Below, piece by piece: positions 1-62,917 of a stretch of DNA of 64,000 nt. The position numbers and the translations under genes are program-made. How positions within the stretch are numbered: position 1 is the first letter of the stretch; each line of letters starts with the position of its first letter. This stretch comes from Escherichia coli (GTDB taxonomy: Bacteria; Pseudomonadota; Gammaproteobacteria; Enterobacterales; Enterobacteriaceae). A model generated the notes under the pieces. It saw only the letters and a program-made list of their open reading frames with translations. It was not told the origin of the DNA and did not search any database. The stretch is from NCBI RefSeq assembly GCF_050320075.1, contig NZ_CP190018.1; one strand, written 5' to 3'.

Positions 1-575
1 GAATTGATTTTAGAACTCGCAGGATTCGCGCTATTACTGGCCTTGTGTGATGTTGTATTGTTCCCTTCGCCCGCTCCAGAATCTCCCCAGGTGGAGAAGA
101 CTAAAAAAGTCTTCTCTGTCAGCAACTTAAACAGTTACCTATTTAATTTGCTTAGGAGTTCTACCATTGTGATCCGCCCTTAGTAACTGTCACGTTAAGT
201 TACACGGTGAGATGACAGTATAACCTAACGTTGGCGGCAGTTGCACCTCTCACACCGCGATAGCACAACGTGAAGATAAAGCCCATCCTGGCATTGTAAT
301 GTCATCGACAGACTGAACACACGCATTTAAGCCCGATGTGCGGCCTTGTGGCTGCGTAAACAGGTTTATGGTGATATTGGTCCTTGCAAACCATATGCAA
401 GCTCTATCAGCGTTTCAGCCACGCTCCCAACGGGTACACGGTTATCCTGATAAGGTGTGATCTTTCTGACAATCTGATGAAGTCGCTACGCTCCCGCTTG
501 TTGCTGTATCACCAACGGGGCTTTATGGTTTCTATTGTCTATAATAATCTCACAATTCCCCTGCATGAGGTTGAT

Positions 576-782
576 ATGACTGTTAGCTACAAGATTACTT
601 ATGAGCATAGAGACGGTGATCAAATTAGAATGGAAGAGGTTTTATTCCATTCAGAGCATGAACCAACAAAAGATGAAATTCATGATGCAGTAAGAAAAGA
701 TACTGTGAGATTTAATTCTCCATCTAATGGAGTAACGGCTGTTTCAGGGTTTAAAGTGATTTCGGTTGTCCCTGTTCCATGA
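576..782 (+). CDS. Hypothetical small protein (68 aa)
   Basis: ATG at 576 is preceded by GAGG at 567-570. The longer track ORF from 384 starts in compositionally different sequence with no SD. No motif recognised. Confidence 0.4.
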   Translation: MTVSYKITYEHRDGDQIRMEEVLFHSEHEPTKDEIHDAVRKDTVRFNSPSNGVTAVSGFKVISVVPVP

Positions 783-793
783 ATGGTTATAGA

Positions 794-810
794 AGGGGCT
801 GGAAGCCCCT
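794..810. terminator. Hairpin between convergent genes (AGGGGC-tggaa-GCCCCT)
   Basis: Perfect 6 bp stem lying between the stop at 782 and the stop at 816. There is no strong T-run, so it is weak as an intrinsic terminator. Confidence 0.35.
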
Positions 811-815
811 AATTA

Positions 816-1136
816 TTACTTCTTAATATCGCCAGTGCATTGATATTCGATAGTCACAAGTGTTTGCATACAACCAGATGAAGAAGGTTGTGAACATTGA
901 GAAGTGAATCCACCAAAAGGCTCGGCTCCTGAATATCCCCAAGCGGCACAACGCGCTTTGGCTGCATTCATGCCTTGTTGTGGATCTACAACAGGGCTTT
1001 CAAACATACCGTAAGAATAACTCATCCTAACTGTGCCGTCTGATTTGCTTCCACCAGTTGGAACGAGTTGTTTTTTTGTTGCACATCCAGAAATAATCAA
1101 TGTTGAAGCAAGTAACAGCATTAAACTTTTGCGCAT
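816..1136 (-). CDS. Lipoprotein, possibly YecR-like
   Basis: Signal peptide plus lipobox LIISGC near the N-terminus. Four further Cys in the mature part. The GGSKSDGTV / WGY / FGG pattern resembles my recollection of the YecR family. Confidence 0.75.
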   Translation of the reverse strand: MRKSLMLLLASTLIISGCATKKQLVPTGGSKSDGTVRMSYSYGMFESPVVDPQQGMNAAKARCAAWGYSGAEPFGGFTSQCSQPSSSGCMQTLVTIEYQCTGDIKK

Positions 1137-1280
1137 GTAAATAATCCCAAGAGATAATGGTTATGTATTGATTTAAAGCGTTTTTAGATTAATGCATTAA
1201 CTTAGCAAAATTAAGTCTTTTCTGATTGTTTGCAGAGTAAAAATGAGTTGCTTTCGAAATTATTTCGGATGTTTATTGTA

Positions 1281-1448
1281 TTACGGTTTTTCAAACCGTC
1301 TAACTATTGTCGCTATTGAATGGGCAATAATAGCAAGAGGATTCATTTCGTCATTGGAGGCAACAAAAAGTCGGTAACTAATAGCCACAACGAATGCAGC
1401 AATAACGAGAAAGCGGATAGTGCTAAGATGTTTTGAAGATAAATGCAT
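1281..1448 (-). CDS. Small hydrophobic protein (55 aa, MHLSSKHLSTIRFLVIAAFVVAISYRLF...), candidate membrane peptide
   Basis: Below the track cutoff; translated by hand. SD AGGGGG sits 4 nt upstream of the ATG and can pair with CCCCCT in the 5' UTR. One predicted TM segment. Confidence 0.35.
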   Translation of the reverse strand: MHLSSKHLSTIRFLVIAAFVVAISYRLFVASNDEMNPLAIIAHSIATIVRRFEKP

Positions 1449-1524
1449 AACGCCCCCTAAATGAATGTGAGGGGGATTAAATCATGCAAATTTGTTATGT
1501 GCAATACTGGTAATTTATCCTAAT

Positions 1525-1571
1525 AGTCTACTATTCACCTCAATCTACGTCAACCAATATTTGATGTAGAT
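1525..1571 (-). promoter_or_regulatory. Sigma70-like promoter (TTGACG-17-TAGACT on the minus strand) overlapped by a 29 bp palindrome
   Basis: Minus-strand -35 is at 1548-1553 and -10 at 1525-1530. ATCTACGTCAA-N7-TTGATGTAGAT spans 1543-1571 with one mismatch per 11 bp arm. Confidence 0.4.
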
Positions 1572-1788
1572 TTAATTTTCTTTTAAAAACAATATGTTGC
1601 AATTTGTTGGATTTTTGGGTTAGGTTGTTTTTTGAACGTTTCCATCAAGTGTAAAGATACGTTTAGCCTTCATAGTGAGTTCAGTTACTGTCTTTTTATC
1701 TGAAATCGGCGCAAACGTGATCATCGCTTAACGAGAAGATCAGCGCCGTCAGGTCCACGCGGCGACAACTCTGAAATATCAGGAGGCA

Positions 1789-2346
1789 TTACGCTTCCTG
1801 CTCTTTCTTGATACGTTGCACCGTCTGTGTGCTGACACTGAAATCTTTTGCTACGCTCCGAATTGATCCACCATTCGCGAGAGCGGCAGCAATTCCTGCT
1901 CGATCAATTGCTTTTCCATTACCACGTTTTGCTATACGTCCAGCGGCCTTAGCTGCGGCGATCCCTTCACGTTGACGCTCAAGCATCATTTCACGTTCCA
2001 TTTGTGCCACTGCTGCAAGCACTGTGAGCATCATATTCCCTGCGGGAGAGTTCTTCCCTGTCTTAAAGTCTTCTTTATGGAAATGCACAGACACGCCGCG
2101 CTCTGTTAATTGCTCAACCGTTGCCAGTAGGTCGGCTGTATTACGGCAAAGTCGATCAATGCTGTGAACATGCAAAACATCACCTTCCCGCACATAGTTC
2201 ATCATTGCCTCAAACTGTGGGCGCTGGGTATTTTTGCCTGACGCTTTATCTTCAAAGACTTTATCAAGAGTTACTCCAGCTAATTGACGGTCTGTGTTTT
2301 GTTGGACAGTCGATACCCTAATGTATCCAATATTAGCCATTTTCAT
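1789..2346 (-). CDS. Serine recombinase (resolvase/invertase family) with C-terminal HTH
   Basis: N-terminal IGYIRVSTxxQ catalytic-serine motif, DRLCR motif and C-terminal HTH (IRSVAKDFSVSTQTVQRI). The second ATG at 2340 has better SD spacing. Confidence 0.9.
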   Translation of the reverse strand: MKMANIGYIRVSTVQQNTDRQLAGVTLDKVFEDKASGKNTQRPQFEAMMNYVREGDVLHVHSIDRLCRNTADLLATVEQLTERGVSVHFHKEDFKTGKNSPAGNMMLTVLAAVAQMEREMMLERQREGIAAAKAAGRIAKRGNGKAIDRAGIAAALANGGSIRSVAKDFSVSTQTVQRIKKEQEA

Positions 2347-2365
2347 TTTCCTTCTGTGTTGATTT

Positions 2366-2472
2366 GTGTGTAGTGATTATTGATCGTGTTGATTAGGTGT
2401 GTAAAGGACTTTTTTCACTACGAAATTCGAAGGTTTTTAGTGTGGTGATTTAGCCTGCTTTATCACTACACG
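2366..2472. promoter_or_regulatory. Recombinase upstream control region with inverted GTGTAGTGAT / ATCACTACAC arms and further CACTAC-like half sites. Possible res or operator site.
   Basis: 10 bp perfect inverted repeat at 2368-2377 and 2462-2471. Related motifs TTCACTAC and TAGTGTGGTGA lie in between. Confidence 0.3.
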
Positions 2473-3260
2473 TCTTGCATGAGAATCATGTAGTTACATT
2501 TTGGTAAAATTAGCAAGCTATTAAATAGTGTGTTTATTTTGAAAAAATAATTTTTTGTTGCATTAAAGGAAACTTGTTCAATAAATGATAGAACGTTTAT
2601 TGAGCAACAATTTTGCAGTGATGCGCTATATGCCGCATTACATAAGGCTTTGCTGATGATAATGTAAAAGTGAAGAAAGCTAACATTGCTCTTTTAAGCT
2701 ACTTTTCATTGAATTTTTAGTATGGAATTACATAGGGATAAACTATGAATATTCTATGATTTACACGAGATATTCTTGCTGTTTAATTCCGGCTTTGGAG
2801 ATCAGGCATTCGCAAGAATACGCTAACGCGTTGCCTGAAAAGCCATTGCACATAATAGAGGTGAGCGTATAGCGAACTATCAATGTGATCATTGCACGAA
2901 TGATAATGAGTGGATATAGATTCTATATATCGTTAGATTGTAGTTTGATAGTTAATGTGTAATGTAGATTGTATGAGCGTATAGCGAATGTTAGTTAGAT
3001 CAACAACAAACTAACCTTTAAATCTCTTTTATCTTCTCATAGATATGGCTATGCGTAGCAACCGAAGGTTAGCCAATCATCTCTATGCAGCCGTAAGGCT
3101 GTTTTGCATGTAATAGTTGTTTGTTGTTGTTAGACAGTTACCAATTTATAGATCAGAGATAGATGTGAGCGTTGAGCGATACACTAATCATAACAACATC
3201 TTCTTACTTTTTAGTTAGTTGTTAGTAGGTTATTGTTATGCGCGCTATTAGCGCATGTAT

Positions 3261-3371
3261 AAAGGTATCATTTTTATCTAAAGGGCTTTAGACATTTTTG
3301 ATACCTTTTTCATCTCTAAAAAAGTGTAATTTTTATCTAAAGGGGCTTTAGACATTTTTTACACCTTTTTC
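3261..3371. repeat. Two adjacent near-palindromes of about 48 bp, arranged as a 59 bp direct repeat. Each is centred on TCTAAAG-GG(G)-CTTTAGA.
   Basis: Palindrome cores at 3277-3292 and 3336-3352. Outer arms are AAAGGTATC/GATACCTTT and AAAGTGTAA/TTACACCTTT. Extra TCTAAAG half sites occur near 3411 and 3488. Confidence 0.7.
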
Positions 3372-3515
3372 TGTGCAAGACACTTACCAGTGTGCACAAT
3401 ACTTATGCTTTTCTAAAGCCGGGAATTTTTAAGTTTGATTGATCAATTGTTAACTTTAAAAGTTACTTTTAACAATCACTTAGACGATCTAAAGCCGCAA
3501 TTAACATAATATAAG

Positions 3516-3545
3516 TTGACATGCAAGCACTTTTTACCGTATAGT
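3516..3545 (+). promoter_or_regulatory. Near-consensus sigma70 promoter (TTGACA-18-TATAGT)
   Basis: Hexamers read directly at 3516-3521 and 3540-3545. AT-rich sequence lies upstream. Confidence 0.55.
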
Positions 3546-3551
3546 GCGGGT

Positions 3552-3605
3552 TTCCTACCTACCCAGGAAATGAGTTCCTACCTACCCAGGAAATGAGTTC
3601 CTACA
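3552..3605 (+). repeat. Tandem 23 bp repeat, about 2.3 copies, each unit a hairpin or operator (TTCCT-N8-AGGAA)
   Basis: TTCCTACCTACCCAGGAAATGAG at 3552-3574 is repeated exactly at 3575-3597, with a partial third copy at 3598-3605. The repeat starts at the predicted +1 of the 3516 promoter. Confidence 0.9.
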
Positions 3606-4556
3606 ATACTATAATTAAACTACAATTAAACTATCTTTTATAAATTCTTTTATCTTTTAAAGAATAATTATAGGGATACCCGTTAGGGAGTCTTCGACTA
3701 TCCCTTAATCTATTGGCATTCGCCAGAACCTTGCACAAGTTAGACTGATGCTTGTCATAACAGATAGTTTTTGTTTTTTGTTAGTAGTTAGCTGATCTAT
3801 GTTCGCTTTCCGCTCACAACGAATATGTAATCTACTATGTGCAAATAGCCTACGGCTTGCGTATGGCTAATAGTCTTGCGCTGTGCGCAGAACGATAATT
3901 AACTAACTACCATCTAACGATTGAAATTTACTTGTGCAATAACCTGAGCATAAGCGAATGGTTGTTAGTGTCTATGCGCTGTGCGCTTCAATAGTTCCAT
4001 TGATGAGGCTTACGCCAATCTAACGATCATCAATCTATTTAAGAGAAAATCTATTGTGCAATACTCTGACGAGTGCAATAACCTTGTGTGCTACGCGTTA
4101 GCGATGTTAGCACATAGACACAGACAACAACCAACAACAAACAAAAAAGAAAGAATGGTTTTAGTAGTTGAAGGTTAAATAAGTTTCTACCGCTTAAATC
4201 AAGCCGTAGGCGAGCTAAACGTATATAAGGTAGGGAAACACTTAGCGGTAATAGATTAGCTCGTTATAGAGCTTCTGAGGAGCTTTACAGGTATTTTATA
4301 AGATGTCTGAAATCAGAGTTTATCTATCCACCATCTTTCCATCATCTGATAAATCAAAAATAAGCCCCTTAAATAAGCCTCTGACGAGATAAACAACCTC
4401 TACATAAGGGAATGTATTGTTTTTATCAAAACCCCCGTCAGAGTGCGATTGAGAGCGTTTTAGACAACAGGGAAGAATTGTACCAGAGTAGGCAGCACAA
4501 AAAGCTAAGAAAAATTATAAGAAATTGAAAATGATCAAGTTTTTTATAAAAGAGGG

Positions 4557-4585
4557 TTGACAAAGCCGCCGTTATGTAGTATTGT
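4557..4585 (+). promoter_or_regulatory. Sigma70 promoter of the early operon (TTGACA-17-TATTGT) with an A/T-rich UP-like region
   Basis: Hexamers at 4557-4562 and 4580-4585. The first gene with a strong SD follows about 110 nt later. Confidence 0.6.
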
Positions 4586-4701
4586 AAGTAGGGAGGGGAG
4601 AAACATCTCTCTCCATCTAAATAATCAAATCACAGAACACTGCACTTTGAGCCGTCAGGCTGCAAGGTGTGTTTTTCTTTTATCTAAATAAGGAGTTTTT
4701 T

Positions 4702-4884
4702 ATGAAATGGTATACACCGGAACACGTCGTAGAGGCATTTAAAAAAGGTGAGCTAACACGACATCAAGTAAGGATGAACAGGAACACAGCGCGGCGCTGT
4801 GGTTATCCAGAGCGTGAAAAATGCTTTGACGATGCACTAAAAATTATTGATGAACTGCGTAAGGCAGAAGCAGAGAAAGAATAA
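4702..4884 (+). CDS. Hypothetical protein (60 aa)
   Basis: ATG at 4702 is preceded by AAGGAG. The track ORF start at 4669 is an upstream alternative codon without an SD. Confidence 0.6.
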   Translation: MKWYTPEHVVEAFKKGELTRHQVRMNRNTARRCGYPEREKCFDDALKIIDELRKAEAEKE

Positions 4885-4907
4885 TAACAGGAGAAGGAGA
4901 AAACCAA

Positions 4908-5084
4908 ATGAATATTAATTTTGATTCTGCAACTTATAACGCGTTGTTAAATCGTGCAAAGGCAGAAGGGAAATCAATTCCAAAACTTGTTAATGAATTA
5001 CTAATTACAGTCCTTACAAAGGAGGAACTAAATGAACCAAAACACCAAAACAATTGCCGAAGCAAAAGCGCAATGCCTCAATAA
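4908..5084 (+). CDS. Ribbon-helix-helix (CopG/Arc-like) DNA-binding protein (58 aa)
   Basis: Hand-translated: MNINFDSATYNALLNRAKAEGKSIPKLVNELL..., a beta-strand/helix/helix pattern. AGGAGAAGGAG lies upstream. The 3' end overlaps the next gene. Confidence 0.5.
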   Translation: MNINFDSATYNALLNRAKAEGKSIPKLVNELLITVLTKEELNEPKHQNNCRSKSAMPQ

Positions 5085-5697
5085 GAAAGATAGTAAACAA
5101 ACATATGTAGTAGTTGAACAATGGCTGAAGATGTTTAAAAAGTGGTTCTCACCGTCAGGTAAGGAATACACCGCGACACTTCCAGCCGTTGAAATCTACA
5201 GTTACGTAGCTGGGTTCAATGAACAAGGGCAAGAATGTTACGCCAATCAAAAAACATTAGCTAATATTGGAATGGTTAGTGATCGTCAGGTGCGTAATAT
5301 TATAAATATGTTTATTGATATGGGTGTTCTTTCTGTAGAGGCACGGGACGGGCAAACATCACTCTATAAAGCATTACCCTTTACAGATGCACACATCACA
5401 CCACCGGAAGACGTAAAAACCTCTGTAAACGTAGAACAGCCTGCACCTGAAACACAGGAACCGTTAGAAGCGACACACTCTATTGAGCAGGAAACACAGG
5501 CAGAAATCACGGAACAATCTGATCTTTTTACATGGCTTATTTCCATAGACAGCCAAAAGCCTATGCAAGAAGAAACAGAAAATTTTATAAAACGTGCACT
5601 GACCTCGAAGAGGATAATTCTTGAAGATGATGCTTTTAATGCACTGATGATAGCCCTGAGAAAAGAAAGTGAAATCTATGACTCAATACCATTTTAA
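5032..5697 (+). CDS. Winged-helix protein resembling RepA_N/DnaD-type replication initiators, with an acidic C-terminal half
   Basis: Strong SD AAGGAGG. The segment LPAVEIYSYVAGF...ECYANQKTLANIGMVSDRQVRNIINMFIDMGVLSVEARDGQTSLY fits the initiator wHTH pattern as I recall it. Confidence 0.7.
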   Translation: MNQNTKTIAEAKAQCLNKKDSKQTYVVVEQWLKMFKKWFSPSGKEYTATLPAVEIYSYVAGFNEQGQECYANQKTLANIGMVSDRQVRNIINMFIDMGVLSVEARDGQTSLYKALPFTDAHITPPEDVKTSVNVEQPAPETQEPLEATHSIEQETQAEITEQSDLFTWLISIDSQKPMQEETENFIKRALTSKRIILEDDAFNALMIALRKESEIYDSIPF

Positions 5698-5709
5698 GGA
5701 GAATAAAAA

Positions 5710-5967
5710 ATGAAATACAACCTGACATTAAACAAACGAACATTCGAAATTACAGAAAGCGGCTACACACTGGCAAAACAGCTTGCTGATAGCAATTATG
5801 AGCTACCCGCGATTATCAGCTTTCAGGAGTTACCTCATAGTAAAGAACACACACAGCACTGGTTAAATCACCTGAGCCATTTTGGGGTAATTAAGTATGA
5901 GGCTGTGAATAGTCAGACGTTCCGTTTGCTTGAGATAAGCCCTTTCGAATTGTGGGTGGCGCTGTGA
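5710..5967 (+). CDS. Hypothetical protein (85 aa), possibly winged-helix
   Basis: ORF with SD, lying in the operon. Confidence 0.65.
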   Translation: MKYNLTLNKRTFEITESGYTLAKQLADSNYELPAIISFQELPHSKEHTQHWLNHLSHFGVIKYEAVNSQTFRLLEISPFELWVAL

Positions 5968-6170
5968 CCATATTCGATAGCGAATTTTCACAAGAAACCT
6001 TTCTGCAATATTTACGGGAAAGAACGGGAATGATTCTGTTTGATTCTGAGTTTTCCGGTGTGGTAGGTGAGCAATTTTTATATGCTCTTCTCGATAGCCT
6101 AAGTAAACAAGGATTATTGCAGTATACCAAAACTCATATGAAAGCATTCAGAATCGACTCTGTAGCTTAA
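5964..6170 (+). CDS. Hypothetical protein (about 68 aa) with an internal tandem (I/L)FDSEFS repeat
   Basis: GTG at 5964 overlaps the upstream stop as GTGA, suggesting translational coupling. The track ORF begins at 5952. Confidence 0.55.
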   Translation: MTIFDSEFSQETFLQYLRERTGMILFDSEFSGVVGEQFLYALLDSLSKQGLLQYTKTHMKAFRIDSVA

Positions 6171-6206
6171 AACAAACAACTATCAAACATCTTGAAGGGT
6201 GAAACA

Positions 6207-6347
6207 ATGGAAAGCTTAATATTTTTCTTAGTATTTATGATCGCTTCCTTTTTTAACACTGCAACAAGAAAAACAAAACGAAGGGGAAGCAATGAGCAAG
6301 AAAAAAGGCAAGAAAAACGTAATAACAACTATTGGCGAAGCATGTGA
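6207..6347 (+). CDS. Possible small membrane peptide (46 aa, MESLIFFLVFMIASFF... with a basic tail)
   Basis: Hand-translated. Weak SD AAGGG. Overlaps the next gene out of frame. Confidence 0.2.
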   Translation: MESLIFFLVFMIASFFNTATRKTKRRGSNEQEKRQEKRNNNYWRSM

Positions 6348-6672
6348 TCAGTATGCGTTAAACAATCCTCGCAAATATAATTATGAGCATGATGCACAAC
6401 CAGGCGAGGAATTGATCTTTATACTTGAAGAACCAAGCCCAGAATTAACAGACGAAGAATTATCACTCATTCAAAGTATGGACGGTGTTTACTTTAATCC
6501 GCGCCCACGCAAAACAACGGTTATAGATTCCAGTCTTCTGAAAAGATGGCAGTGTTTGGGTTTTCAGGATATGCACCACTTTAGGGGGTATATGGCTCTT
6601 AACAGTCTGCAATATGCAGGGGTGAGAGAAACCGAATTACTTCTGCTTGATAAAATAAAAATCGACGATTAA
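6292..6672 (+). CDS. Hypothetical protein (126 aa), basic N-terminus
   Basis: ORF with SD (AAGGGGA). No motif recognised. Confidence 0.7.
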   Translation: MSKKKGKKNVITTIGEACDQYALNNPRKYNYEHDAQPGEELIFILEEPSPELTDEELSLIQSMDGVYFNPRPRKTTVIDSSLLKRWQCLGFQDMHHFRGYMALNSLQYAGVRETELLLLDKIKIDD

Positions 6673-6713
6673 CAGCGTTTGCTGAATATAACCCTTAACA
6701 AAAGGAAAATAAA

Positions 6714-6935
6714 ATGATTAACAAAGCAATTTTAGAGACAACCACTTTTCACGATCTTAAACTTCTTTCTGAATGCTTCATAAGCCTGATTGAACGTGCA
6801 CAGGAAGAAAACGATCTCGGTTTACTCGATGATATTATAGACAACATTGCAACTTATAAAATCCCGCTCACTATTGCTATGAAGAAAGCTCGTGAAGCAC
6901 AACAACAATTAGAACAATCAGAGGAAGTGGCATAA
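6714..6935 (+). CDS. Hypothetical acidic helical protein (73 aa)
   Basis: ORF with SD. The stop overlaps the next start as TAATG. Confidence 0.7.
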   Translation: MINKAILETTTFHDLKLLSECFISLIERAQEENDLGLLDDIIDNIATYKIPLTIAMKKAREAQQQLEQSEEVA

Positions 6936-7243
6936 TGAGCGAAGTACACAACGTAACTATTGAAATGATGGATCTGGTTATTGATTTACAGAAAGCAGTA
7001 AACGCGGCTCTGACTTTTCCAAGCGAGCTAACCATCACACAGGCGGTTATTAATCTGGAATCGACGCGGGAAGCACTGCAACTACTTATTGCAGCGTGCG
7101 AAGAGAGCGAAGGTGCACAGATTGAAGCTGATGACCTTTCTAATCTGATCATCGTCATTCATGACACCACTGAAATCATGAAAGAAGCGGTAGCAGATCT
7201 GCAACCCCTCATTAATGAATTAATCGATAAGGCTAACAACTAA
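6935..7243 (+). CDS. Hypothetical strongly acidic helical protein (102 aa)
   Basis: By my count about 19 D/E against 4 K/R. TAATG overlaps at both ends. Confidence 0.7.
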   Translation: MSEVHNVTIEMMDLVIDLQKAVNAALTFPSELTITQAVINLESTREALQLLIAACEESEGAQIEADDLSNLIIVIHDTTEIMKEAVADLQPLINELIDKANN

Positions 7244-7452
7244 TGTCAAAAACTAAACGTGTGCGCCTTCTGGCGCTCACAGAAGAAGGGAAAGCGGGTA
7301 ATTGTTTCACAGTAGGTAAAGTGTATACCGGCTTACTCGACACTTACACCCGCCTGATGCACGTAACCGATGATAACGGTAACGATCAAACAATCGTTTT
7401 AGATGGTAATTGCGTATTTGGTGAGTGGGAACTGACAACCGAAAAAAGTTGA
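7243..7452 (+). CDS. Hypothetical protein (69 aa)
   Basis: Translationally coupled ORF and the last gene of the early operon. Confidence 0.7.
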   Translation: MSKTKRVRLLALTEEGKAGNCFTVGKVYTGLLDTYTRLMHVTDDNGNDQTIVLDGNCVFGEWELTTEKS

Positions 7453-7471
7453 AAATAATTGCATTTACCTA

Positions 7472-7500
7472 TTGACTTTTACTAACAGAAATGTTAGAAT
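7472..7500 (+). promoter_or_regulatory. Sigma70-like promoter (TTGACT-17-TAGAAT)
   Basis: Hexamers at 7472-7477 and 7495-7500, 20 nt after the early-operon stop. Confidence 0.5.
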
Positions 7501-7506
7501 AATAAA

Positions 7507-7749
7507 TGTTGGGTTTGGAATCGAAAATAGGTGTTAGCTGGCGTTAATCCTTCTCCCGATTCTAATCCTACACGAAAGCGGGGTAGACCTCAAGGGGTCG
7601 CGCCCTATCTAACCTATCCCGCTTTCCCTTTACAGTGATTTTTTAGAAATTGTTTCCCTCGTTAATAGTTTCATTTTATTTTCCTTATTGCTTTATCAAA
7701 ATTGTGTCTTAAGAATGCAGGGGCTACGGATTTGGCCCCTCATCTTTTT
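7507..7749 (+). ncRNA. Candidate structured leader or ncRNA 1
   Basis: No ORF longer than 20 codons. A 13 bp stem (7574-7586 with 7614-7626) encloses the AGGG-gtcgcg-CCCT hairpin. Ends at the terminator-like hairpin at 7719-7749. Confidence 0.3.
7719..7749 (+). terminator. Intrinsic terminator-like hairpin (AGGGGC...GCCCCT followed by T5)
   Basis: 6 bp GC stem at 7719-7724 and 7735-7740, with a T-run at 7745-7749. Confidence 0.5.
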
Positions 7750-7869
7750 AACCAACTGCGAAGCATGAAACACTTTCTAAAAACACTGTTTACAGTGTCT
7801 ATAAACCCCGTATAAACAAATAACGGTGTATATCTGTTTCTTGACAACAGTTTTCTACTAAGCTTAAAG

Positions 7870-8290
7870 CTGAATATGTTTTTGTTTGTTGGTGTTTATT
7901 AAGGTGCCAATCTTAGAACGCGAAAGCGTGGATGATCCCCGAAATCATCTCGGCACCGCCTCCTATTAAAATGAGAATCCAAAAGGTTTGAAAGTTAATA
8001 GGTGATTCCTGAAAGTCTGATCGATGCATCCACATTGTGAAAGACAGCGATTAGCCGTCGCACGAATAACAGGTTTATAGATTCCTCTCCAAAGGGGGCG
8101 ACCTCCTAAGCGCCTACTCCCTGTAAGCCTGTTATTCACCCCTCAAGGGTATATAACAATAAGCAATCTTATTCTTATATGTCCTCCTCTTTAAGTTCAT
8201 ATAAACTGCGATTTAGTAACACTCTATAACATCCTTCAAATGTTGTATTCATAAAGCCGGAAGCTTTCCCCTTCCGGTTTTATTTTTATC
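7870..8290 (+). ncRNA. Candidate long structured RNA 2 (about 420 nt). The 5' end is uncertain.
   Basis: A possible promoter is TTGACA at 7841-7846 with a weak -10 TTAAAG. A three-way junction is formed by GGTGCC 7903-7908 with GGCACC 7952-7957, the GNRA hairpin ACGC-GAAA-GCGT at 7918-7929, and GATGAT/ATCATC at 7931-7949. An 8 bp stem pairs 7962-7969 with 7995-8002, and a 10 bp stem pairs 8064-8073 with 8128-8137. A strong terminator sits at 8253-8290. No ORF longer than 20 codons. Confidence 0.4.
8253..8290 (+). terminator. Intrinsic terminator (CCGGAAG-ctttccc-CTTCCGG followed by a T-rich tail)
   Basis: 7 bp GC-rich stem extended by A-U/G-U pairs, then TTTTATTTTTAT. It lies about 40 nt before the first head-module gene. 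Confidence 0.7.
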
Positions 8291-8330
8291 AGCACTAAAC
8301 AAGACTGTTAGGAATAAAGGTAAAGCAATA

Positions 8331-8546
8331 ATGCAAAATCTCATTCTAAAGAATGGTAACGAAGAATTGGTTATCACTGATGAAACATTCAATGCTACGG
8401 CTTATATGCTGGGGATCACTCCCACAGAATTGAAAAAACATTGTGATAAGCTTTTTAAGTCTGCTGATGAACAGAAACCTACTATGCAGGATCTGATTAA
8501 AGCAAAAGCAGAACAAATCAAACAATCCAAAAAAGGAAACTATTAA
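8331..8546 (+). CDS. Hypothetical protein (71 aa), first gene of the head module
   Basis: ORF with SD. No motif recognised. Confidence 0.7.
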   Translation: MQNLILKNGNEELVITDETFNATAYMLGITPTELKKHCDKLFKSADEQKPTMQDLIKAKAEQIKQSKKGNY

Positions 8547-8548
8547 TT

Positions 8549-8920
8549 ATGGCTATTATTAATATGAGCGATCTGTTTCCAGTTCGCAAATCATTTACCG
8601 ATATCGTTTCATATGCAACTGATGAGTTCGGTTGTGTGCAATCTTTTACCGTTGATCTGGCGGTTGATGTTGAATGCGGCGATCTGATTACCAGTGACGG
8701 CGCTGAATATGTAAGCGGCGGCGATGTTCTTGTAGTTGTGTCTGATGCGGTATCCGCTGGCGACGCTAAAACCGTTAACGTGCTGCGTAGCAATGCCGGA
8801 CTGGTTTGCATCAAGTCCGATGCTCTGAATGTTGAAGGCGCTGTGAAAGAAGCTGCTATTGCTGCCCTGGCTGCAAAAGGTTTCCAGATGGCTGGTTTTA
8901 ACACTGTATTCACATCTTAA
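8549..8920 (+). CDS. Head decoration / capsid-cement-like protein (gpD / DUF2190-like)
   Basis: 123 aa, Gly/Ala/Val-rich beta-type protein immediately upstream of the capsid gene. The size, position and G..V......G.....V pattern are typical of decoration proteins. The assignment rests on pattern, not on an alignment. Confidence 0.6.
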   Translation: MAIINMSDLFPVRKSFTDIVSYATDEFGCVQSFTVDLAVDVECGDLITSDGAEYVSGGDVLVVVSDAVSAGDAKTVNVLRSNAGLVCIKSDALNVEGAVKEAAIAALAAKGFQMAGFNTVFTS

Positions 8921-8938
8921 TATAAAGGAATAAAAATA

Positions 8939-9967
8939 ATGATTATTGGTAATGAATCCGTCGATCTGGCTCCGCTGTTTAGTCTGCACGACTCTCGCAA
9001 CTTCCTGTTAACTTCTCTCGACTTTACTGATCCGGTAGGTGTGAGTTCTCATAAAGTGGCTGTTAGCCAACTGGTGGAAACTAACGAATCTCTGTTCAAC
9101 AAAGAAACCTCTCGTTTCTCTTCTGAACATAACGTGACTAAACGTGAACAGGGTAAAGAATTTTTAGTAGAGATCCCCTACTTCCTGCGTGAAGATATGA
9201 TTAAGCCGCAAGACGTGCAAGGCAAACGTAAACCAGGCGCTACCGTTGAAGAAACTCTGACAGATATCTACGCGGAATATGTTGCTAAGCACCACATTGC
9301 TTTCCAGCGTACTAAAGAAAGCGTGCTGGCTGCTTCCCTGTTCTCTGGTCGCACTTACACCCCTAAAACTGATGATGTGCTGATCCAGTGGGGCGATCTG
9401 TTTAGTGTTGTTCCGATGACTGCAACCATCGACGCATCAAGCACCACGCCTTCTATGGTGTTCCAGCAATTCGATCAGATGCATACAGACGTTATTACTA
9501 AAGCACAAAGCCAGGCGGCTGCTGTAGAACGTATCGTTGTATTCTGTAAACCTGCTGCTTTCAACGCTATCCGTTACAGTGCTGGCATGGTTAACGCGTT
9601 CCAGTATGCAAGCCCTACCGATGACGCAAACATCGTTTATAGCGTGCGCTCCCTGCTGCCAGGTGTGACTACCTTCACTATTCCTGGGACTAACATCGAT
9701 ATCGTTAAAGTTACTGATCCGCTGCTGCTGGCTCATATGACTTCTGATGCGGTTGCTGTTCCGAAGTTCGCTAAAGGCTCTAACGTCTATCAGAACATTT
9801 TCAGCGCTCCTTCTTCAACGTTCGACCTGCTGAATTCTGGCGCGGCTGAATATTACAGCTATGCGTTTAGCCCAGCACGTAACGACGCTGTAAACGTAGT
9901 TACTGAGAATAGCCAGATGGTTGTAAACCACGGCGTAGGCTTCACTGTACAGATCACAGTAGCGTAA
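8939..9967 (+). CDS. Major capsid protein, lambda gpE-like family
   Basis: 342 aa, close to the size I recall for gpE (about 341 aa). The IKPQDVQGKRKPG segment resembles the conserved P.D.QG.R..G region of the capsid E family. It follows a decoration-like gene as in lambda D-E. Confidence 0.75.
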   Translation: MIIGNESVDLAPLFSLHDSRNFLLTSLDFTDPVGVSSHKVAVSQLVETNESLFNKETSRFSSEHNVTKREQGKEFLVEIPYFLREDMIKPQDVQGKRKPGATVEETLTDIYAEYVAKHHIAFQRTKESVLAASLFSGRTYTPKTDDVLIQWGDLFSVVPMTATIDASSTTPSMVFQQFDQMHTDVITKAQSQAAAVERIVVFCKPAAFNAIRYSAGMVNAFQYASPTDDANIVYSVRSLLPGVTTFTIPGTNIDIVKVTDPLLLAHMTSDAVAVPKFAKGSNVYQNIFSAPSSTFDLLNSGAAEYYSYAFSPARNDAVNVVTENSQMVVNHGVGFTVQITVA

Positions 9968-10017
9968 TAAAGCGTTAATAGTCGTTTCCTGTGCGACTGG
10001 AAATAAAACAGGCAATA

Positions 10018-10081
10018 AGGGCAAAAGGGATTATTAAACCTGTAGCGCAAATACAGTAAACAATCTCTTTTGCCCTTTTTT
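10018..10081 (+). terminator. Long-stem terminator-like structure after the capsid gene
   Basis: AGGGCAAAAG at 10018-10027 pairs with CTTTTGCCCT at 10067-10076, followed by T5. An inner hairpin lies at 10040-10056. Confidence 0.45.
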
Positions 10082-10120
10082 CGTTTATACCGTCTATTAA
10101 AATATTGTGAGAGAAAAATC

Positions 10121-10312
10121 ATGAGCGAACAAAACAACAATCCAGTTGAGATCCTGAAAGCTGTTTCCACCTTACCGGAAGATATTCTGAATATCTCTCA
10201 AGTGTGTAAGTTTTTAGGGATCTCTAATACTGCTGTACGTCAAAGAATCTTCACTACTGGCTGCTCAGCTATGGAAGCAGTGCAATACTACGTAACAAAA
10301 CAAAACAAATAA
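10121..10312 (+). CDS. Small HTH DNA-binding protein (63 aa). Could be an excisionase/AlpA-like or small-terminase-like recognition protein.
   Basis: The ISQVCKFLGISNTAVRQRI helix-turn-helix. The track ORF start at 10070 lies inside the terminator, so the ATG at 10121 is preferred. Confidence 0.6.
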   Translation: MSEQNNNPVEILKAVSTLPEDILNISQVCKFLGISNTAVRQRIFTTGCSAMEAVQYYVTKQNK

Positions 10313-10330
10313 AAGGTAAAGGAAAATATT

Positions 10331-12172
10331 ATGGATTTAAACATCTCAACCTTAACAAACAAGGTTGTATTTAAAGTTGATTTTGCATCATTACAGAAAG
10401 CAAGGGACGCAGGGAAGAAATTTCAGAAAGAAATGGAAAACCTAACCAATCCAACATTGAAAGGGAAGAAGGCTAAACGAGCTATAGACGAGGCTCATGA
10501 TCTGGTAAAGGCTCGTAAAGCTGCACAGGCTAAAACTGATGCCAAAGCGTCAGACAAGCAAGCTCAAACCGATAAGAAGAACGCTGATAAGGTGGCAAAG
10601 GCAGAAGCTAAAGCGAAGGCTAAAGCCGCTATAGCTGCCGATAAACAGATCCGCGCTAAAGCGACAATAGCAGAGAAAGCAGAGATTAAGCGCCAGCAAG
10701 CTTTCAGACAGCTTGAAGGGATTAAGAAAGGGCGTATGGGCGACGGTATGGACTCCGCCCAATACTACAAAACGTTGCAATACATCAAAGCACAAACGGC
10801 AGCGTATGAGAAAGGCGCTATTAGTCAGGCTAAGATGAATCACCTGATCCGTGATCGTATCACGTTAGAACGCCGTGCGGCTGCTGTAAAAGCTCGCCAG
10901 GTGGCGGCTGATGGCGGTAAATATCCACATATGGCTAAACAGCTTAAAGGCGGTCATATAGGCGGTGGTGTAGGTGCAATGGTGGGCGGTGCCGCTCTCA
11001 CTGCTGCCACTCTCGGCGGTGCTGCGATATTCAATACCGTAACCGATCAGGCAAGCAAGATCACAGACACTAACCGCAAGGCAAAGGCTGTCAACGTAAA
11101 CACTAACGCCCTGTTAGCACTTAATCAGTACGGCTTAGAACACGGTGTCGATAGTTCCGTAGACCAACGTCAAGACAACCTTAAAGACGTTCAAGAGCGT
11201 TTAGGTGAATCCGTAGGGAATACCAAATGGGACGCTAAGAAAGGTCGCTGGGCTGGCGGTAATGGTGCCGTCGATAACATCCTTAATAAATATGGTTGGA
11301 GTCCTGAACAGATTAAAGGTTTCCAGACTGATCCATTAGGTTTCCTGGGCGCTGTAGTGAAAGAAGGAGAACGCCGTGGACTCTCTGATCAGGAGCAGGG
11401 TCACATCCTTGAAGACCTTGGAAATGATTTACAATATTTCCGTGGTGCTTTCAGTCGTAACGGTGAAGAGCTAAATAAAACCATCGTTAAGATGCAAAAA
11501 GCCAATGCCACCTATGCGCAAGCGGATCTTGACGCTGCTGAACGTCTGCAAGCTGTACAGGCTAATATGAATATGGCCTGGGAAGGTAGTAAGAAAGCTA
11601 TCATGACGGGATTCGGTGAAGAGTTCGACGCTCAGGCTGGTGAAGAGTGGGCGCAAATGTTGAAAGATCTCAATCCTCTGTTTAAAGAACTTGGAAGCTC
11701 AACGGCTGAAATGATGAGCGCCTTTGCTGGTGCTGTATCGTGGCTTACTGCTGCATACCAGAATATAAATCCAGAGAACAAACATGAAAACCTTGATTCG
11801 TCCGGTATGTATTATAAGGATTCGTTTGTAGGCGGCATGGTTGATTGGGGTCGTAGTGCTTTAGGCTTATCGCCTATCCCTGGCACGGAAGACAAGCCAA
11901 CGACTGGCGGAACTGCAATTCAGAACTATTCAAGCCCGTCCGATAACGTGCAATCCCTGAAAGAGAACGTTAGCCGTGATCTGAACACTACCCCATCTAT
12001 GACGTATGCGCCAAGCATTGTCGTAAACGTGCCAGAAAGTAAGGTTGATGTGAATATCGCTCCTGATGGTAGTCAGCTTGGATCATACCTCGATTACAAA
12101 GTGGGAAGTATCCAACAAGATTTTGAACGTAGTTTCACGTTGGCGGCTCTGTCTGGGCAAGCACCAAGTTAA
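10331..12172 (+). CDS. Large structural protein, tape-measure-like (Lys/Ala coiled coil plus glycine-zipper hydrophobic segment)
   Basis: 613 aa. The N-terminal KAEAKAKAKAA-type repeats and GGHIGGGVGAMVGGAALTAATLGGAAIF are typical of tape-measure or DNA-pilot proteins. Confidence 0.6.
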   Translation: MDLNISTLTNKVVFKVDFASLQKARDAGKKFQKEMENLTNPTLKGKKAKRAIDEAHDLVKARKAAQAKTDAKASDKQAQTDKKNADKVAKAEAKAKAKAAIAADKQIRAKATIAEKAEIKRQQAFRQLEGIKKGRMGDGMDSAQYYKTLQYIKAQTAAYEKGAISQAKMNHLIRDRITLERRAAAVKARQVAADGGKYPHMAKQLKGGHIGGGVGAMVGGAALTAATLGGAAIFNTVTDQASKITDTNRKAKAVNVNTNALLALNQYGLEHGVDSSVDQRQDNLKDVQERLGESVGNTKWDAKKGRWAGGNGAVDNILNKYGWSPEQIKGFQTDPLGFLGAVVKEGERRGLSDQEQGHILEDLGNDLQYFRGAFSRNGEELNKTIVKMQKANATYAQADLDAAERLQAVQANMNMAWEGSKKAIMTGFGEEFDAQAGEEWAQMLKDLNPLFKELGSSTAEMMSAFAGAVSWLTAAYQNINPENKHENLDSSGMYYKDSFVGGMVDWGRSALGLSPIPGTEDKPTTGGTAIQNYSSPSDNVQSLKENVSRDLNTTPSMTYAPSIVVNVPESKVDVNIAPDGSQLGSYLDYKVGSIQQDFERSFTLAALSGQAPS

Positions 12173-12230
12173 TGATAAAGAGAATGTTTAATCACCATTT
12201 AAAACACTCTTATAAGGAATTAAGCATATA

Positions 12231-12257
12231 AGAGGCTCCCATTACAAGGAAGCCTCT
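12231..12257. terminator. Hairpin between convergent genes (AGAGGCT...AGCCTCT)
   Basis: 7 bp stem followed by TTATT. It sits between the stop at 12172 and the integrase stop at 12280. Confidence 0.45.
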
Positions 12258-12279
12258 TTATTGCGCCTATGGCGTTGTT

Positions 12280-13455
12280 TTAAGCCTTAAAATCAATATT
12301 TAATTCATATCTTACTAATTCTACATATTCAGCTAATTCTGGAATGCTTGCCCCTTGTGAGTAGGTGCGAAAGGCTTCTGTTTTAGCTCTCTGCTCTGTA
12401 TGTCCGGTAATGGCACCGATCCGCTGTTCAGGCACTCCGGCACGATCAAGACAAGTGATAAACATCCCGCGCAAGCTGTGAAAGCATTGTCTATTTGTAG
12501 CGATTGGCAAGACGCTACGACGTAAACGTGAGAACGCTTGAGAATAGAACGGGCCTTTCTTACCGTCGATTCTTTTTACTTTGTTCGAGTGAGGGAACAA
12601 ATATTCACCATAATTATGATTTAAATATTCATCGACAATAATCGATAGTCTCGAATGTATCGGAACGTGCCTGATCCCTGCTTTAGTCTTACTTTTGCTG
12701 ATATAAAAACAGCGTATTCCTTCCACAGTTACAACCTCTGACTTTTTCAGACTTGCCAGTTCGTCTAATCTGCATCCTGAAAACAAGCCCATTAAAATAA
12801 TATTTCTGATCTCCGGCTCCGCTGCATCAAGTAGCTTTTGCATTTGTTCAGGTGTAAACGGTTGATAACTCTCGATTGTGCGACGTGCTTCGAGATTATG
12901 ACCGTGAAAAGGGTTACTGTCTGGTATTCCGTCATAACGGCGTTTAGCAAATTCATAGAGCGATCCTAAGCATGTAAGCCAGTTTTGACGAGATTGATCG
13001 GCTGCTCCTCGTTGCTTCTGGTCATCTAAGAATACTGTTACAAGCCGTCTGCCTATTTTCTCAATATGAATATCATCTTTCTGAATGCTTTGTAAAAATA
13101 GCTCAACGGCCCTTGCTGATTTCTGTAGTGTTGAGTATGAACGACGCTCTCTGTAGCATTCGGCGTATTCGTCACGTATTAAGCATAGGGAAGGCGATGC
13201 ATAACCGCGTTTTACGGCTCTTTGCGTGTTTTTATTGGCCCTTGCCTCTGAATGTAAGGATTCAATAGCTTGTTGTAACCTCCTTTCGGGGTTATCAGGA
13301 TTATGTTTCCGCTTTAGTTCCTCCCATTCTAATAATAGATGGTTTCTGAATCTTCTCGCCTCATTCAGATCTCGTGTAGATGTGCTTTTTCTCCACAACT
13401 TGTAAGGGTAAAGATGACGTAAGTATTTAGGAACAAAAATCGGTGATGCTGCCAA
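12280..13455 (-). CDS. int: Tyrosine recombinase/integrase, 5'-truncated. The first about 5 codons of the open frame are IS1 end sequence.
   Basis: The C-terminal catalytic motifs HSLRG, GH and RTY are present. The N-terminal arm motif (VPKYL...KSTSTRDLNEARRF) begins abruptly. The ORF start (TTG at 13453-13455) lies inside the IS1 IRL, which begins at 13442. Confidence 0.85.
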   Translation of the reverse strand: MAASPIFVPKYLRHLYPYKLWRKSTSTRDLNEARRFRNHLLLEWEELKRKHNPDNPERRLQQAIESLHSEARANKNTQRAVKRGYASPSLCLIRDEYAECYRERRSYSTLQKSARAVELFLQSIQKDDIHIEKIGRRLVTVFLDDQKQRGAADQSRQNWLTCLGSLYEFAKRRYDGIPDSNPFHGHNLEARRTIESYQPFTPEQMQKLLDAAEPEIRNIILMGLFSGCRLDELASLKKSEVVTVEGIRCFYISKSKTKAGIRHVPIHSRLSIIVDEYLNHNYGEYLFPHSNKVKRIDGKKGPFYSQAFSRLRRSVLPIATNRQCFHSLRGMFITCLDRAGVPEQRIGAITGHTEQRAKTEAFRTYSQGASIPELAEYVELVRYELNIDFKA

Positions 13456-13496
13456 CTTACTGATTTAGTGTATGATGGTGTTTTTGAGGTGCTCCA

Positions 13497-13772
13497 GTGG
13501 CTTCTGTTTCTATCAGCTGTCCCTCCTGTTCAGCTACTGACGGGGTGGTGCGTAACGGCAAAAGCACCGCCGGACATCAGCGCTATCTCTGCTCTCACTG
13601 CCGTAAAACATGGCAACTGCAGTTCACTTACACCGCTTCTCAACCCGGTACGCACCAGAAAATCATTGATATGGCCATGAATGGCGTTGGATGCCGGGCA
13701 ACCGCCCGCATTATGGGCGTTGGCCTCAACACGATTTTCCGCCATTTAAAAAACTCAGGCCGCAGTCGGTAA
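13497..13772 (+). CDS. insA: IS1 InsA
   Basis: 91 aa, [40 protein letters not shown]..., recognised. Confidence 0.95.
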
Positions 13773-14194
13773 CCTCGCGCATACAGCCGGGCAGTGACGT
13801 CATCGTCTGCGCGGAAATGGACGAACAGTGGGGATACGTCGGGGCTAAATCGCGCCAGCGCTGGCTGTTTTACGCGTATGACAGGCTCCGGAAGACGGTT
13901 GTTGCGCACGTATTCGGTGAACGCACTATGGCGACGCTGGGGCGTCTTATGAGCCTGCTGTCACCCTTTGACGTGGTGATATGGATGACGGATGGCTGGC
14001 CGCTGTATGAATCCCGCCTGAAGGGAAAGCTGCACGTAATCAGCAAGCGATATACGCAGCGAATTGAGCGGCATAACCTGAATCTGAGGCAGCACCTGGC
14101 ACGGCTGGGACGGAAGTCGCTGTCGTTCTCAAAATCGGTGGAGCTGCATGACAAAGTCATCGGGCATTATCTGAACATAAAACACTATCAATAA
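13691..14194 (+). CDS. insB: IS1 InsB' frame, expressed as the InsAB' transposase by -1 frameshifting
   Basis: 167 aa frame overlapping insA. The slippery TTAAAAAAC motif lies at 13746-13754. Confidence 0.9.
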
Positions 14195-29085: not shown

Positions 29086-29795
29086 GTGCACAGAAAACCC
29101 CCAGCTAGGCTGGGGGTTCCGGAAAGCTTTCAGCTTTGAGCCAGTTATTCAAACCCCTTTTGATTTGTTAAAACACCTTGCGGTCTGGCAACTGCAAGTG
29201 TCAAACAAGAAATCAAAAGGGGGTCCCAATGGGGGACGAAAAGAGCTTAGCGCACACCCGCTGGAACTGTAAATATCACATAGTTTTTGCGCCGAAATAC
29301 CGAAGACTGGCGTTTTACGGAGAGAAGCGTAGGGCGATAGGCAGTATTTTGAGAAAGCTGTGTGAGTGGAAAAGCGTACGGATTCTGGAAGCAGAGTGCC
29401 GCGCAGATCATATCCATATGCTTGTGGAAATCCCACCCAAAATGAGCGTATCCGGCTTTATGGGATATCTGAAAGGGAAAAGCAGTCTGATGCTTTACGA
29501 GCAGTTTGGGGATTTGAAATTCAAATACAGAAACAGGGAGTTCTGGTGCCGAGGGTACTATGTCGATACGGTGGGTAAGAACACGGCGAAGATACAGGAC
29601 TACATAAAGCACCAGCTTGAAGAGGATAAAATGGGGGAGCAGTTATCGATTCCATATCCGGGCAGCCCGTTTACGGGCCGTAAGTAACGAAGTTGAATGC
29701 AAATGTCAGATCGTATGCGCCTGTTAGGGCGCGGCTGGTAACAGAGCCTTACAGGCGCATTTGAAAAACCTCCGGCTATGCCGGAGGATATTTAT
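29086..29795 (+). mobile_element. IS200: IS200-type element (IS200/IS605 family). The ends are approximate.
   Basis: Left-end perfect hairpin at 29096-29118. A long stem occludes the tnpA RBS (CCCCTTTTGATTT...AAATCAAAAGGGG). A 152 aa Y1 transposase is present, and right-end hairpins lie at about 29718-29790. Confidence 0.8.
29229..29687 (+). CDS. tnpA: IS200 TnpA (Y1/HUH transposase)
   Basis: MGDEKSLAHTRWNCKYHIVFAPKYRR..., HIHMLV (the HUH motif) and GYYVDTVG. 152 aa. Confidence 0.9.
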   Translation: MGDEKSLAHTRWNCKYHIVFAPKYRRLAFYGEKRRAIGSILRKLCEWKSVRILEAECRADHIHMLVEIPPKMSVSGFMGYLKGKSSLMLYEQFGDLKFKYRNREFWCRGYYVDTVGKNTAKIQDYIKHQLEEDKMGEQLSIPYPGSPFTGRK

Positions 29796-34135: not shown

Positions 34136-34218
34136 CCCAGAGGTATTGATAGGTGAAGTCAACTTCGGGTTGAGCACATGAATTACACCAGCCTGCGCAG
34201 ATGCGCAGGTTTTTTTTT
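34136..34218 (+). ncRNA. omrB: OmrB small RNA
   Basis: Starts CCCAGAGGTATTGATAGGTGAAGTC and ends with the GCCTGCGCAGATGCGCAGG-T9 terminator. It matches my recollection of OmrB, and it lies between galR and aas. Confidence 0.9.
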
Positions 34219-34332
34219 GCCGGTCATCAATCTGTAACAGTAACCGACAATTTACACACCTCGTTGCATTTCCCTTCATTCCTTTGCGTTTTCTCACTGG
34301 CGAAGAGTCGTCGTGCAGACCACAATCAAGAT

Positions 34333-62840: not shown

Positions 62841-62917
<77 letters not shown>

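Follow-up and report, generated by a model that had tools for sequence, protein, structure and literature searches.

Positions 7453 to 8330 of the 64,000-nucleotide stretch of Escherichia coli DNA analyzed here (the window) raise the question of what a block without evident genes is doing directly in front of the head genes of an integrated, phage-like element. The block begins after the stop codon, at 7452, of a run of early open reading frames (ORFs) and ends at the start, at 8331, of a 71-amino-acid (aa) head ORF. The window is E. coli chromosome, with 100% identity to strain YZLc1-3, and RefSeq annotates nothing in 7453-8330. An earlier note, written from the letters of the window alone, had proposed either one or two dedicated structured noncoding RNAs (ncRNAs) or a late-gene leader whose terminators must be overridden. 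Our analysis supports a dedicated, structured plus-strand RNA. We further propose, with about an even chance of being right, that the block is a noncoding transcription unit of a capsid-encoding, phage-satellite-like element and would act as a terminator-gated leader for its head operon.

Coding content and plus-strand RNA structure of the block

The block had been described as free of ORFs, and closer comparison bore this out. The longest ORF within 7453-8330 has 37 aa on the plus strand and 57 aa on the minus strand. No ORF of at least 18 aa was intact across all five relatives of 88-99% identity, each having suffered a frameshift, a stop, or a start loss in at least one of them. Comparison of these close relatives also showed indels that are not multiples of three spread over the conserved parts of the block, and the equivalent gap was without an ORF in every genus examined. 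Several ORFs of 18-57 aa do lie on the two strands and might suggest that small proteins or a decayed gene account for the conservation. However, since no ORF was conserved among the five variants, we rejected this explanation, which we regard as scarcely credible.

The block has instead the properties of an RNA. Folding of 7507-8290 gave -231 kcal/mol (z = -7.6) on the plus strand, compared with z = -4.1 on the minus strand, and 200-nt windows had a mean z of -3.3 in the block versus -0.23 ± 1.35 in the flanking genes. The evidence is most detailed for a four-helix domain, designated module 2, which was recovered both by independent folds and by covariance-model alignment and consists of the following parts.

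7958-8150, plus strand: module 2, the complete four-helix domain
7962-7969/7995-8002, plus strand: helix H-a
8015-8018/8042-8045 plus 8022-8026/8033-8037, plus strand: helix H-b, with loop CAUCCA
8047-8051/8057-8061, plus strand: helix H-c, with loop UAGCC
8064-8080/8121-8137, plus strand: helix H-d
8096-8115, plus strand: apical hairpin of H-d, presenting ACCUCCUAAG in loop 8101-8110, a signature that resembles an anti-Shine-Dalgarno (anti-SD) sequence
8004-8010 (GAUUCCU) and 8135-8141 (UUCACCC), plus strand: single-stranded segments

Module 2 occurs in four sequence types, and despite stems that are unlike at most positions, every type folded on its own to these four helices. Covariation was assessed in a covariance-model alignment (A8) of 17 sequences, drawn from some four independent lineages and fitted to the model; 97% of its cells were paired, and double changes were present in 22 of the 50 pairs. 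The covariation score was 0.44, compared with 0.19 in shuffled alignments (0/500) and 0.03-0.12 when the partners were slid. The alignment contained 70 G.U pairs versus 5 A.C pairs, and if read on the minus strand, these helices would reach just 88.6% pairing; the 70:5 asymmetry indicates that the fold is that of a plus-strand RNA. Compensatory changes and strand-specific G.U pairs, the generic marks of a structured ncRNA, were thus both found among these four or so lineages in a model-fitted alignment, and the stems are supported at homologous loci, where the earlier note had suggested looking. Taken with the lack of a conserved ORF, these observations argue for a dedicated structured RNA rather than decayed coding DNA.

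Conservation of module 2 is also high. Identity among window-type variants was 96-98%. In the same variants, identity at third codon positions was ~90% for the capsid gene, ~85% for the gene of a tape-measure-like protein, and 65-97% for the early ORFs, so that module 2 is more conserved than the capsid and tape-measure-like genes are at those positions.

The RNA did not correspond to a described family. A search of Rfam 15, a check that the earlier note had also proposed, gave no match in 7300-8500 even at E <= 10, save three at chance level, and none at the gathering threshold; a scan of six related loci returned tRNAs only. Searches with the module-2 model itself gave convincing matches only in the long-type elements of E. 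coli and none in the DNA of Phapecoctavirus. The block is a candidate new structured RNA family, with more structure than expected by chance. A possible additional pairing, spotted by eye and confined to the window type, would join the H-b loop CAUCCAC to GUGGAUG at 7926.

Transcription signals, layout, and a shared loop motif

The block can be compared across a large family. Three nucleotide-block queries against 5,426 complete E. coli genomes, the matched sets of which may overlap, found the window-type block in 63 genomes, a divergent ~990-nt type in 331 (mostly partial matches), and a short ~340-nt type in 307. The window-type element is found, for example, in the O26:H11 strains H19 and 97-3250, and the short type in O26:H11 strain 11368. 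Capsid homologues were present in Citrobacter, Enterobacter, Klebsiella, Cronobacter, Dryocola, and Serratia. Fetching 125 loci via protein alignment, with metagenome and viral contigs included, yielded 92 distinct gaps in eight sequence clusters; a single-protein scan of genome contigs had given one locus only. Intact gaps measured about 330-1006 nt, shorter delimited values being due to spurious ORFs. The eight clusters mostly cannot be aligned with each other, but the order of promoter, ORF-free RNA, terminator, and head genes was found in all eight, in four or more genera (Escherichia, Citrobacter, Enterobacter, and Klebsiella). The leader-like layout proposed for the window is thus conserved family-wide, and the simplest and commonest relatives consist of a promoter, an RNA of ~235 nt, a terminator, and the head genes only. 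In the window, the layout comprises the following elements.

7472-7500, plus strand: promoter P1, with -35 TTGACT, a 17-nt spacer, and extended -10 TGT-TAGAAT (scan match)
7508-7573, plus strand: SL1, a 5'-terminal three-tier stem-loop in the minimum free energy (MFE) fold, in which the G-rich putative 5' end pairs with the C-rich segment 7565-7573
7574-7626, plus strand: HP1, a 13-bp hairpin (inverted repeat I12), with internal-loop motifs ACCUCAAGG and UCUAAC
7719-7749, plus strand: T1, a predicted internal intrinsic terminator or attenuator, with an 8-bp GC-rich stem and CAUCUUUUU (scan match)
7903-7957, plus strand: three-way junction specific to the window type (MFE fold)
8183-8197, plus strand: second anti-SD-like motif, CCUCCUCUUUAAG, preceded by AUUCUUA (8171-8177)
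8251-8290, plus strand: T2, a predicted strong intrinsic terminator, with a 13-bp stem, a 7-nt loop, and a U-run (scan match), 40 nt before the first head gene
8291-8330, plus strand: spacer that holds CTAAACA..TGTTAG, an inverted repeat that is short and imperfect, as well as the ribosome-binding site (RBS) of head ORF1, and that has no sigma70-like promoter
8331-9967, plus strand: head operon, comprising the 71-aa ORF, a 123-aa ORF, and the gpE-like major capsid protein (ORFs, Pfam, RefSeq annotation)

Counts of promoters and terminators alone did not exceed the shuffled expectation, so that the significance of these signals lies in their conservation in relatives. The sigma70 promoter claimed at 7472-7500 was returned by the promoter scan; it matches the consensus hexamers at 10 of 12 positions, carries the additional TG, and has a spacing within 16-18 nt. 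A promoter of the form TTGACA-17/18-(TGT)TAnnAT opens the gap in seven of the eight clusters, followed in these, 6-8 nt past the -10 element, by (A/U)GGGG(U). This sequence is probably the 5' end of the RNA, pairing with a C-run ~55 nt downstream, and transcription would begin near the 5' end of SL1. The SL1 architecture recurs in window-, NMBU-, and H22-type sequences, each folded separately, and the stem-loop encloses an invariant block, AGGUGUUAGCUGGCGUUAAUCCUUCUCC (7528-7557), that is unchanged between types diverged by 72%. The structural-region promoters of Phapecoctavirus (L126, 13177-13302 and 1073-1173) are also consensus sigma70 promoters with an extended -10 element, TTGACA-17-TGTTACAAT, and are followed by a 5' hairpin that begins AUGGG, a design that is the same as that of the satellite promoter and SL1.

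Within P1, the spacer motif TAACAGAAATGT was identical in window-type and Citrobacter-type elements whose RNAs no longer align. Similarly, TAAC(A/G)GAAATGT was kept between the spacer at 7478-7494 and the promoters of loci L006, L060, and L013, although the RNAs are otherwise unalignable. The conserved spacer suggests a protein-binding site at the promoter. No sigma70-like match was found by the promoter scan downstream of 7500, including the interval from T2 to the head genes. A second promoter had been proposed at 7841; the TTGACA hexamer is indeed present at 7841-7846, but no -10 element passes the scan and the -35 element is lost in close relatives, and this candidate was rejected.

Downstream of SL1, the predicted 13-bp long-range stem (7574-7586/7614-7626) reappeared as HP1. 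In the NMBU type, HP1 is formed by AUGGAAGGUGAUA/UAUUACCUUCCAU, with 10 of the 13 pairs changed on both sides, one pair being G.U, and all 13 pairs kept; HP1 is absent from the H22 type. Both terminator-like hairpins of the earlier note were matched by the terminator scan, T1 as 7719-7740 and T2 as 8251-8283, each followed by a T run, and both consist of a GC-rich hairpin that leads directly into a U-run. A hairpin and U-run of unrelated sequence occupy the place equivalent to T1 in the NMBU and H22 types, and a hairpin and U-run lie 35-90 nt ahead of head ORF1 in every cluster. Between this terminator and head ORF1, each family type has its own small inverted repeat. The operon beyond encodes a major capsid protein that matches Pfam Phage_cap_E (2.5e-11). 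A further strongly structured spot (z about -4.2), intergenic and just after the capsid gene, was noted within 9900-10200 of the window and may serve the late operon as an internal terminator or attenuator.

The remaining structural features of the earlier note were likewise found in place or within one base. The 8-bp stem is H-a, and the stem given as 10 bp exists but is 17 bp long (H-d). The three-way junction at 7903-7957 appears in the MFE fold, but its GAAA loop is not conserved, relatives having UUUC, GAAAA, or GAAAU. Among window-type variants the junction is 93-100% identical, with changes in one hairpin loop only, and alignment did not find it in other sequence types. In locus L021 (~2485-2497, equivalent to 7920-7929 of the window) the loop GAAA is swapped for its complement UUUC with the stem intact, which looks like a loop inversion at a DNA palindrome. 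Two motifs had been reported to recur in the two halves of the block, and they do, as GGGGTAGACCTC at 7581 and GGGGGCGACCTC at 8094 and as CCTCAAGGG at 7588 and 8141, each second copy being shifted by one base from its reported position. This recurrence is real and fits a partial duplication of a basic unit; the commonest relatives hold one ~235-nt unit only.

One motif crosses the boundaries between types. The family signature is a single-stranded CCUCCUAAG or CCUCCUUAA, and the only sequence common to all eight types is TCCTAAG, the top shared 7-mer, in six clusters or CCTCCTTAA in the other two. Of 47 distinct contexts, 44 were predicted to leave the motif unpaired, usually as part of a hairpin loop. 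At its 3' end, E. coli 16S rRNA reads CCUCCUUA, and the signature loop is therefore an anti-SD look-alike. CCUCCU occurs three times in the RNA versus 0.35 expected (P = 0.0065). The H22 and NMBU types retain the second anti-SD-like motif in the form CCUCCUCAAAG, and the Citrobacter type retains it as a hairpin loop, CCUCCUUAAU, that follows AUUCUUAAC. At short-type loci, L011 (9150-9165) among them, RNAs that are otherwise almost invariant differ in the anti-SD-like tract by entire CCU units (CUCCUCCUUAAG versus CUCCUCCUCCUUAAG).

Weighing of the possible functions

In the reading that we favor, host sigma70 RNA polymerase would start at P1 and produce a plus-strand RNA of up to ~780 nt. This RNA would carry, in order, SL1 locking the 5' end, HP1, T1, the type-specific junction, the four-helix domain exposing the loop CCUCCUAAG, and T2. 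T1 and T2 would keep the capsid genes silent, and head-gene expression would follow when a read-through factor, which probably appears only upon helper-phage infection, acts on the conserved RNA domains or on the promoter spacer TAACAGAAATGT. The terminated RNA would accumulate as a by-product or have a second, trans-acting function. We regard the RNA as the leader of the head (late) operon because no other promoter lies ahead of the head genes, P1 being the nearest, with T1 and T2 in between.

Several points weigh against this proposal. The start site, the 3' ends, and the read-through are all deduced from sequence, and the covariation comes from about four independent lineages in a model-fitted alignment. 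A conserved multihelix domain does lie upstream of a terminator, as in riboswitches and attenuators, but neither T1 nor T2 was found to have an alternative (antiterminator) pairing partner, no known riboswitch or attenuator class was matched, and ~100 poorly structured nt separate module 2 from T2. No antiterminator protein was recognized among ten element proteins by Pfam and PHROGs. Finally, a helper-specific promoter is possible within the 40-90 nt after T2, where each type has its own inverted repeat, and would make the RNA an independent gene.

This last point leads to the main rival, a tentative alternative that is possible in our view, in which the block encodes a stand-alone, constitutive trans-acting RNA. 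Its anti-SD-like loops (CCUCCUAAG, CCUCCUUAA) would pair with strong RBSs of helper-phage or satellite mRNAs or would bind a ribosomal component, and T2 would insulate head genes transcribed from a helper-dependent promoter of their own. Stable bacterial small RNAs (sRNAs) are marked by a strong sigma70 promoter together with a paired 5' end and a Rho-independent terminator; the loop motif is the only sequence that all eight types share, CCUCCU is enriched, and the inverted repeat that each type has after T2 might act as operator for a distinct promoter. The OLE RNA provides a precedent, being a large ncRNA with a mimic of the 16S 3' tail that binds bS21 (PMC12054373). A candidate target also exists, as the RBS of the head-decoration gene of Phapecoctavirus anhysbys, AUCUUAGGAGAU (L126, 4431-4442; NC_052656, 118027-118038), is a perfect 12-nt complement of the Enterobacter-type loop AUCUCCUAAGAU (L016) and an 8-nt complement of the window loop. 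However, the 8-mer concerned, CUUAGGAG, is also found at the RBS of an unrelated phage gene, with ~0.4 chance matches expected per 25 kb, and the complementarity is near what any SD-like target would give; we treat it as a lead and not as evidence. Against a trans-acting RNA also stand its length of 240-950 nt, far above the size of seed-type sRNAs, the absence of the target CUUAGGAG from the plus strand within the element (the nearest exact copy, at 151, lies outside), and the lack of a recognizable promoter after T2. The leader and trans-acting functions would not conflict: in satellite P4, the leader is likewise the source of an RNA, the CI RNA. A bolder combination, which we consider rather unlikely, is a new class of large satellite riboregulator, whose loops would mimic the 16S 3' end and capture strong RBSs on late mRNAs of the helper (such as that of the head-decoration/capsid operon in a virulent phage of the Phapecoctavirus type) or a ribosomal component, switching helper capsid synthesis off while the satellite's own capsid genes are read through. 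If so, one molecule would be both sensor/leader and weapon.

The earlier note had also suggested that the terminators are overridden in a manner resembling Q/6S-RNA or put-type control. In a lambdoid scheme of this kind, a pR'/qut-like promoter would give a 6S-like RNA and the Q protein of a lambdoid helper would carry transcription past a tR'-like terminator, or a nut/put-type RNA would act. The layout of promoter, short terminated RNA, and late genes is the same as that of lambda pR'-6S-tR', the conserved spacer motif lies where lambda Q binds, and the capsid protein belongs to the Pfam family of lambda gpE. Nevertheless, we judge this control quite improbable. The capsid and tape-measure-like proteins have their relatives in virulent Phapecoctavirus and Pakpunavirus myoviruses, the ten element proteins contain no Q- or N-like domain (a helper might encode a Q), 7507-8290 contains no boxA (CGCTCTTA or TGCTCTTTAACAA), and the DNA lacks similarity to any phage record. 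A/T-rich hexamers precede the conserved GGGG but overlap the expected start site; the G-run begins at that site, not at a downstream -10-like pause element, and it fits an RNA 5' end better than a sigma-dependent pause. Very improbable, too, is a DNA-level site, either a cos/pac packaging site or a replication origin. Having no terminase, the element needs a packaging signal in some part of its DNA; an O-like initiator is among its products; and GGGGGCGACCT at 8093-8104 matches the lambda cosN cohesive end GGGCGGCGACCT at 10 of 12 positions. A match with two mismatches is, however, at chance level, and the motif is not kept in other types, so that this cos candidate was discarded; the block contains only short two-copy repeats and no iterons; and its conservation tracks base-pairing with one-strand G.U wobbles, unlike that of DNA sites.

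The host element and its relation to known systems

The block lies within an integrative element of ~12 kb (window ~1789-13455). The element consists, in order, of a repeat-rich ORF-free region (2346-4669), an early operon with a helix-turn-helix/O-like initiator, the block, three head genes, a 613-aa tape-measure-like protein, and a tyrosine integrase; a serine recombinase is also encoded, and there is no terminase or portal. Relatives are located at tRNA-Gly or tRNA-Thr, and some also encode a Dit-like protein. The capsid and tape-measure-like proteins are closest, at 25-31% identity, to those of virulent myoviruses of ~150 kb (Phapecoctavirus, Pakpunavirus), and the block DNA has no similarity to phage or plasmid records. 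In these phages a decoration gene stands beside the capsid gene and the tape measure precedes another tail gene, an order that the element parallels by position. Comparison of the element's 123-aa head protein with the decoration protein of the phage gave no sequence similarity, and this candidate was set aside. We infer that the element is satellite-like and would have a helper of the Phapecoctavirus type rather than a lambdoid one. The family is common in E. coli and other Enterobacterales and apparently undescribed, our literature searches having returned no description of the element or the RNA.

Other features of the window were noted in passing. The region 2346-4669 is a second ORF-free stretch, of 2.3 kb, whose iteron-like direct repeats comprise units of 60 bp (3258-3371), a tandem of 23 bp (3552-3597), and three copies of TGAGCGTATAGCGAA; it is partly conserved in relatives and may be an origin or a regulatory region. 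Directly after the integrase, 13468-14194 contains high-GC ORFs, where RefSeq annotates an IS1B transposase in the identical strain. Ordinary chromosomal RNA genes are present at 29096-29219 (STnc490), 34136-34420 (OmrA and OmrB), and 62844-63136 (three tandem tRNAs).

Among known systems, lambda pR'-6S RNA-tR' has a strong promoter and a short terminated RNA just upstream of the late genes, the expression of which needs Q read-through. The block resembles it in placing a promoter and a terminated RNA directly ahead of late (head) genes. Unlike the lambda 6S region, the element is without a Q gene, a recognizable pause element, or sequence similarity; its RNA is four times longer, with conserved multihelix domains and two terminators, and the likely helper is not lambdoid. 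In the P4 immunity region (PLE leader, CI RNA; Rfam C4, RF01695), transcription from a constitutive promoter yields a structured leader that is not translated and contains terminators, and an RNA processed from it controls downstream genes. P4 is likewise an E. coli phage satellite with a promoter-fed, structured, terminator-bearing leader, but that leader controls replication genes, whereas the genes downstream of the block encode the capsid; RF01695 (P4 CI/P1 C4) gave no match in the block, the repeats of which are direct and not complementary boxes of the seqA/B/C type. The put sites of HK022 resemble the block by layout, as cis-acting structured RNA between promoter and terminators, but consist of two stem-loops of ~70 nt that need no factor.

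The OLE RNA is comparable as a large structured ncRNA with a CCUCCU identical to the 16S rRNA 3' tail (PMC12054373). It differs in that its mimic is paired with an SD-like strand, whereas that of the block is exposed in predicted loops, and in that OLE occurs in Bacillota and shows no homology. The element as a whole resembles capsid-forming chromosomal islands of the phage-inducible kind (PICIs) as well as PLE, satellites of virulent phages or with structural genes, in being small and integrated and in having an integrase, a replication initiator, some virion genes, and probable helper dependence. Unlike these, it has a gene set of capsid, tape-measure-like, and Dit-like proteins only, and long noncoding regions.

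The arrangement of promoter, leader RNA, terminator, and late genes is thus known; what is not known from elsewhere is this RNA, with its size, domains, and anti-SD-like signature. No bacterium is better annotated than E. coli, and still an RNA of up to ~780-950 nt with clear covariation is unannotated in it and absent from Rfam; relatives match several hundred of the 5,426 genomes. To our knowledge, satellites of virulent myoviruses have so far come mainly from Vibrio (PLE, PICMI), and the block RNA sits at the switch point of an element that resembles such a satellite. If the RNA gates capsid expression, it would offer a compact, testable model for the sensing of a helper by a satellite; if its anti-SD-like loops act in trans, this would be a novel form of interference with translation by a mobile element.

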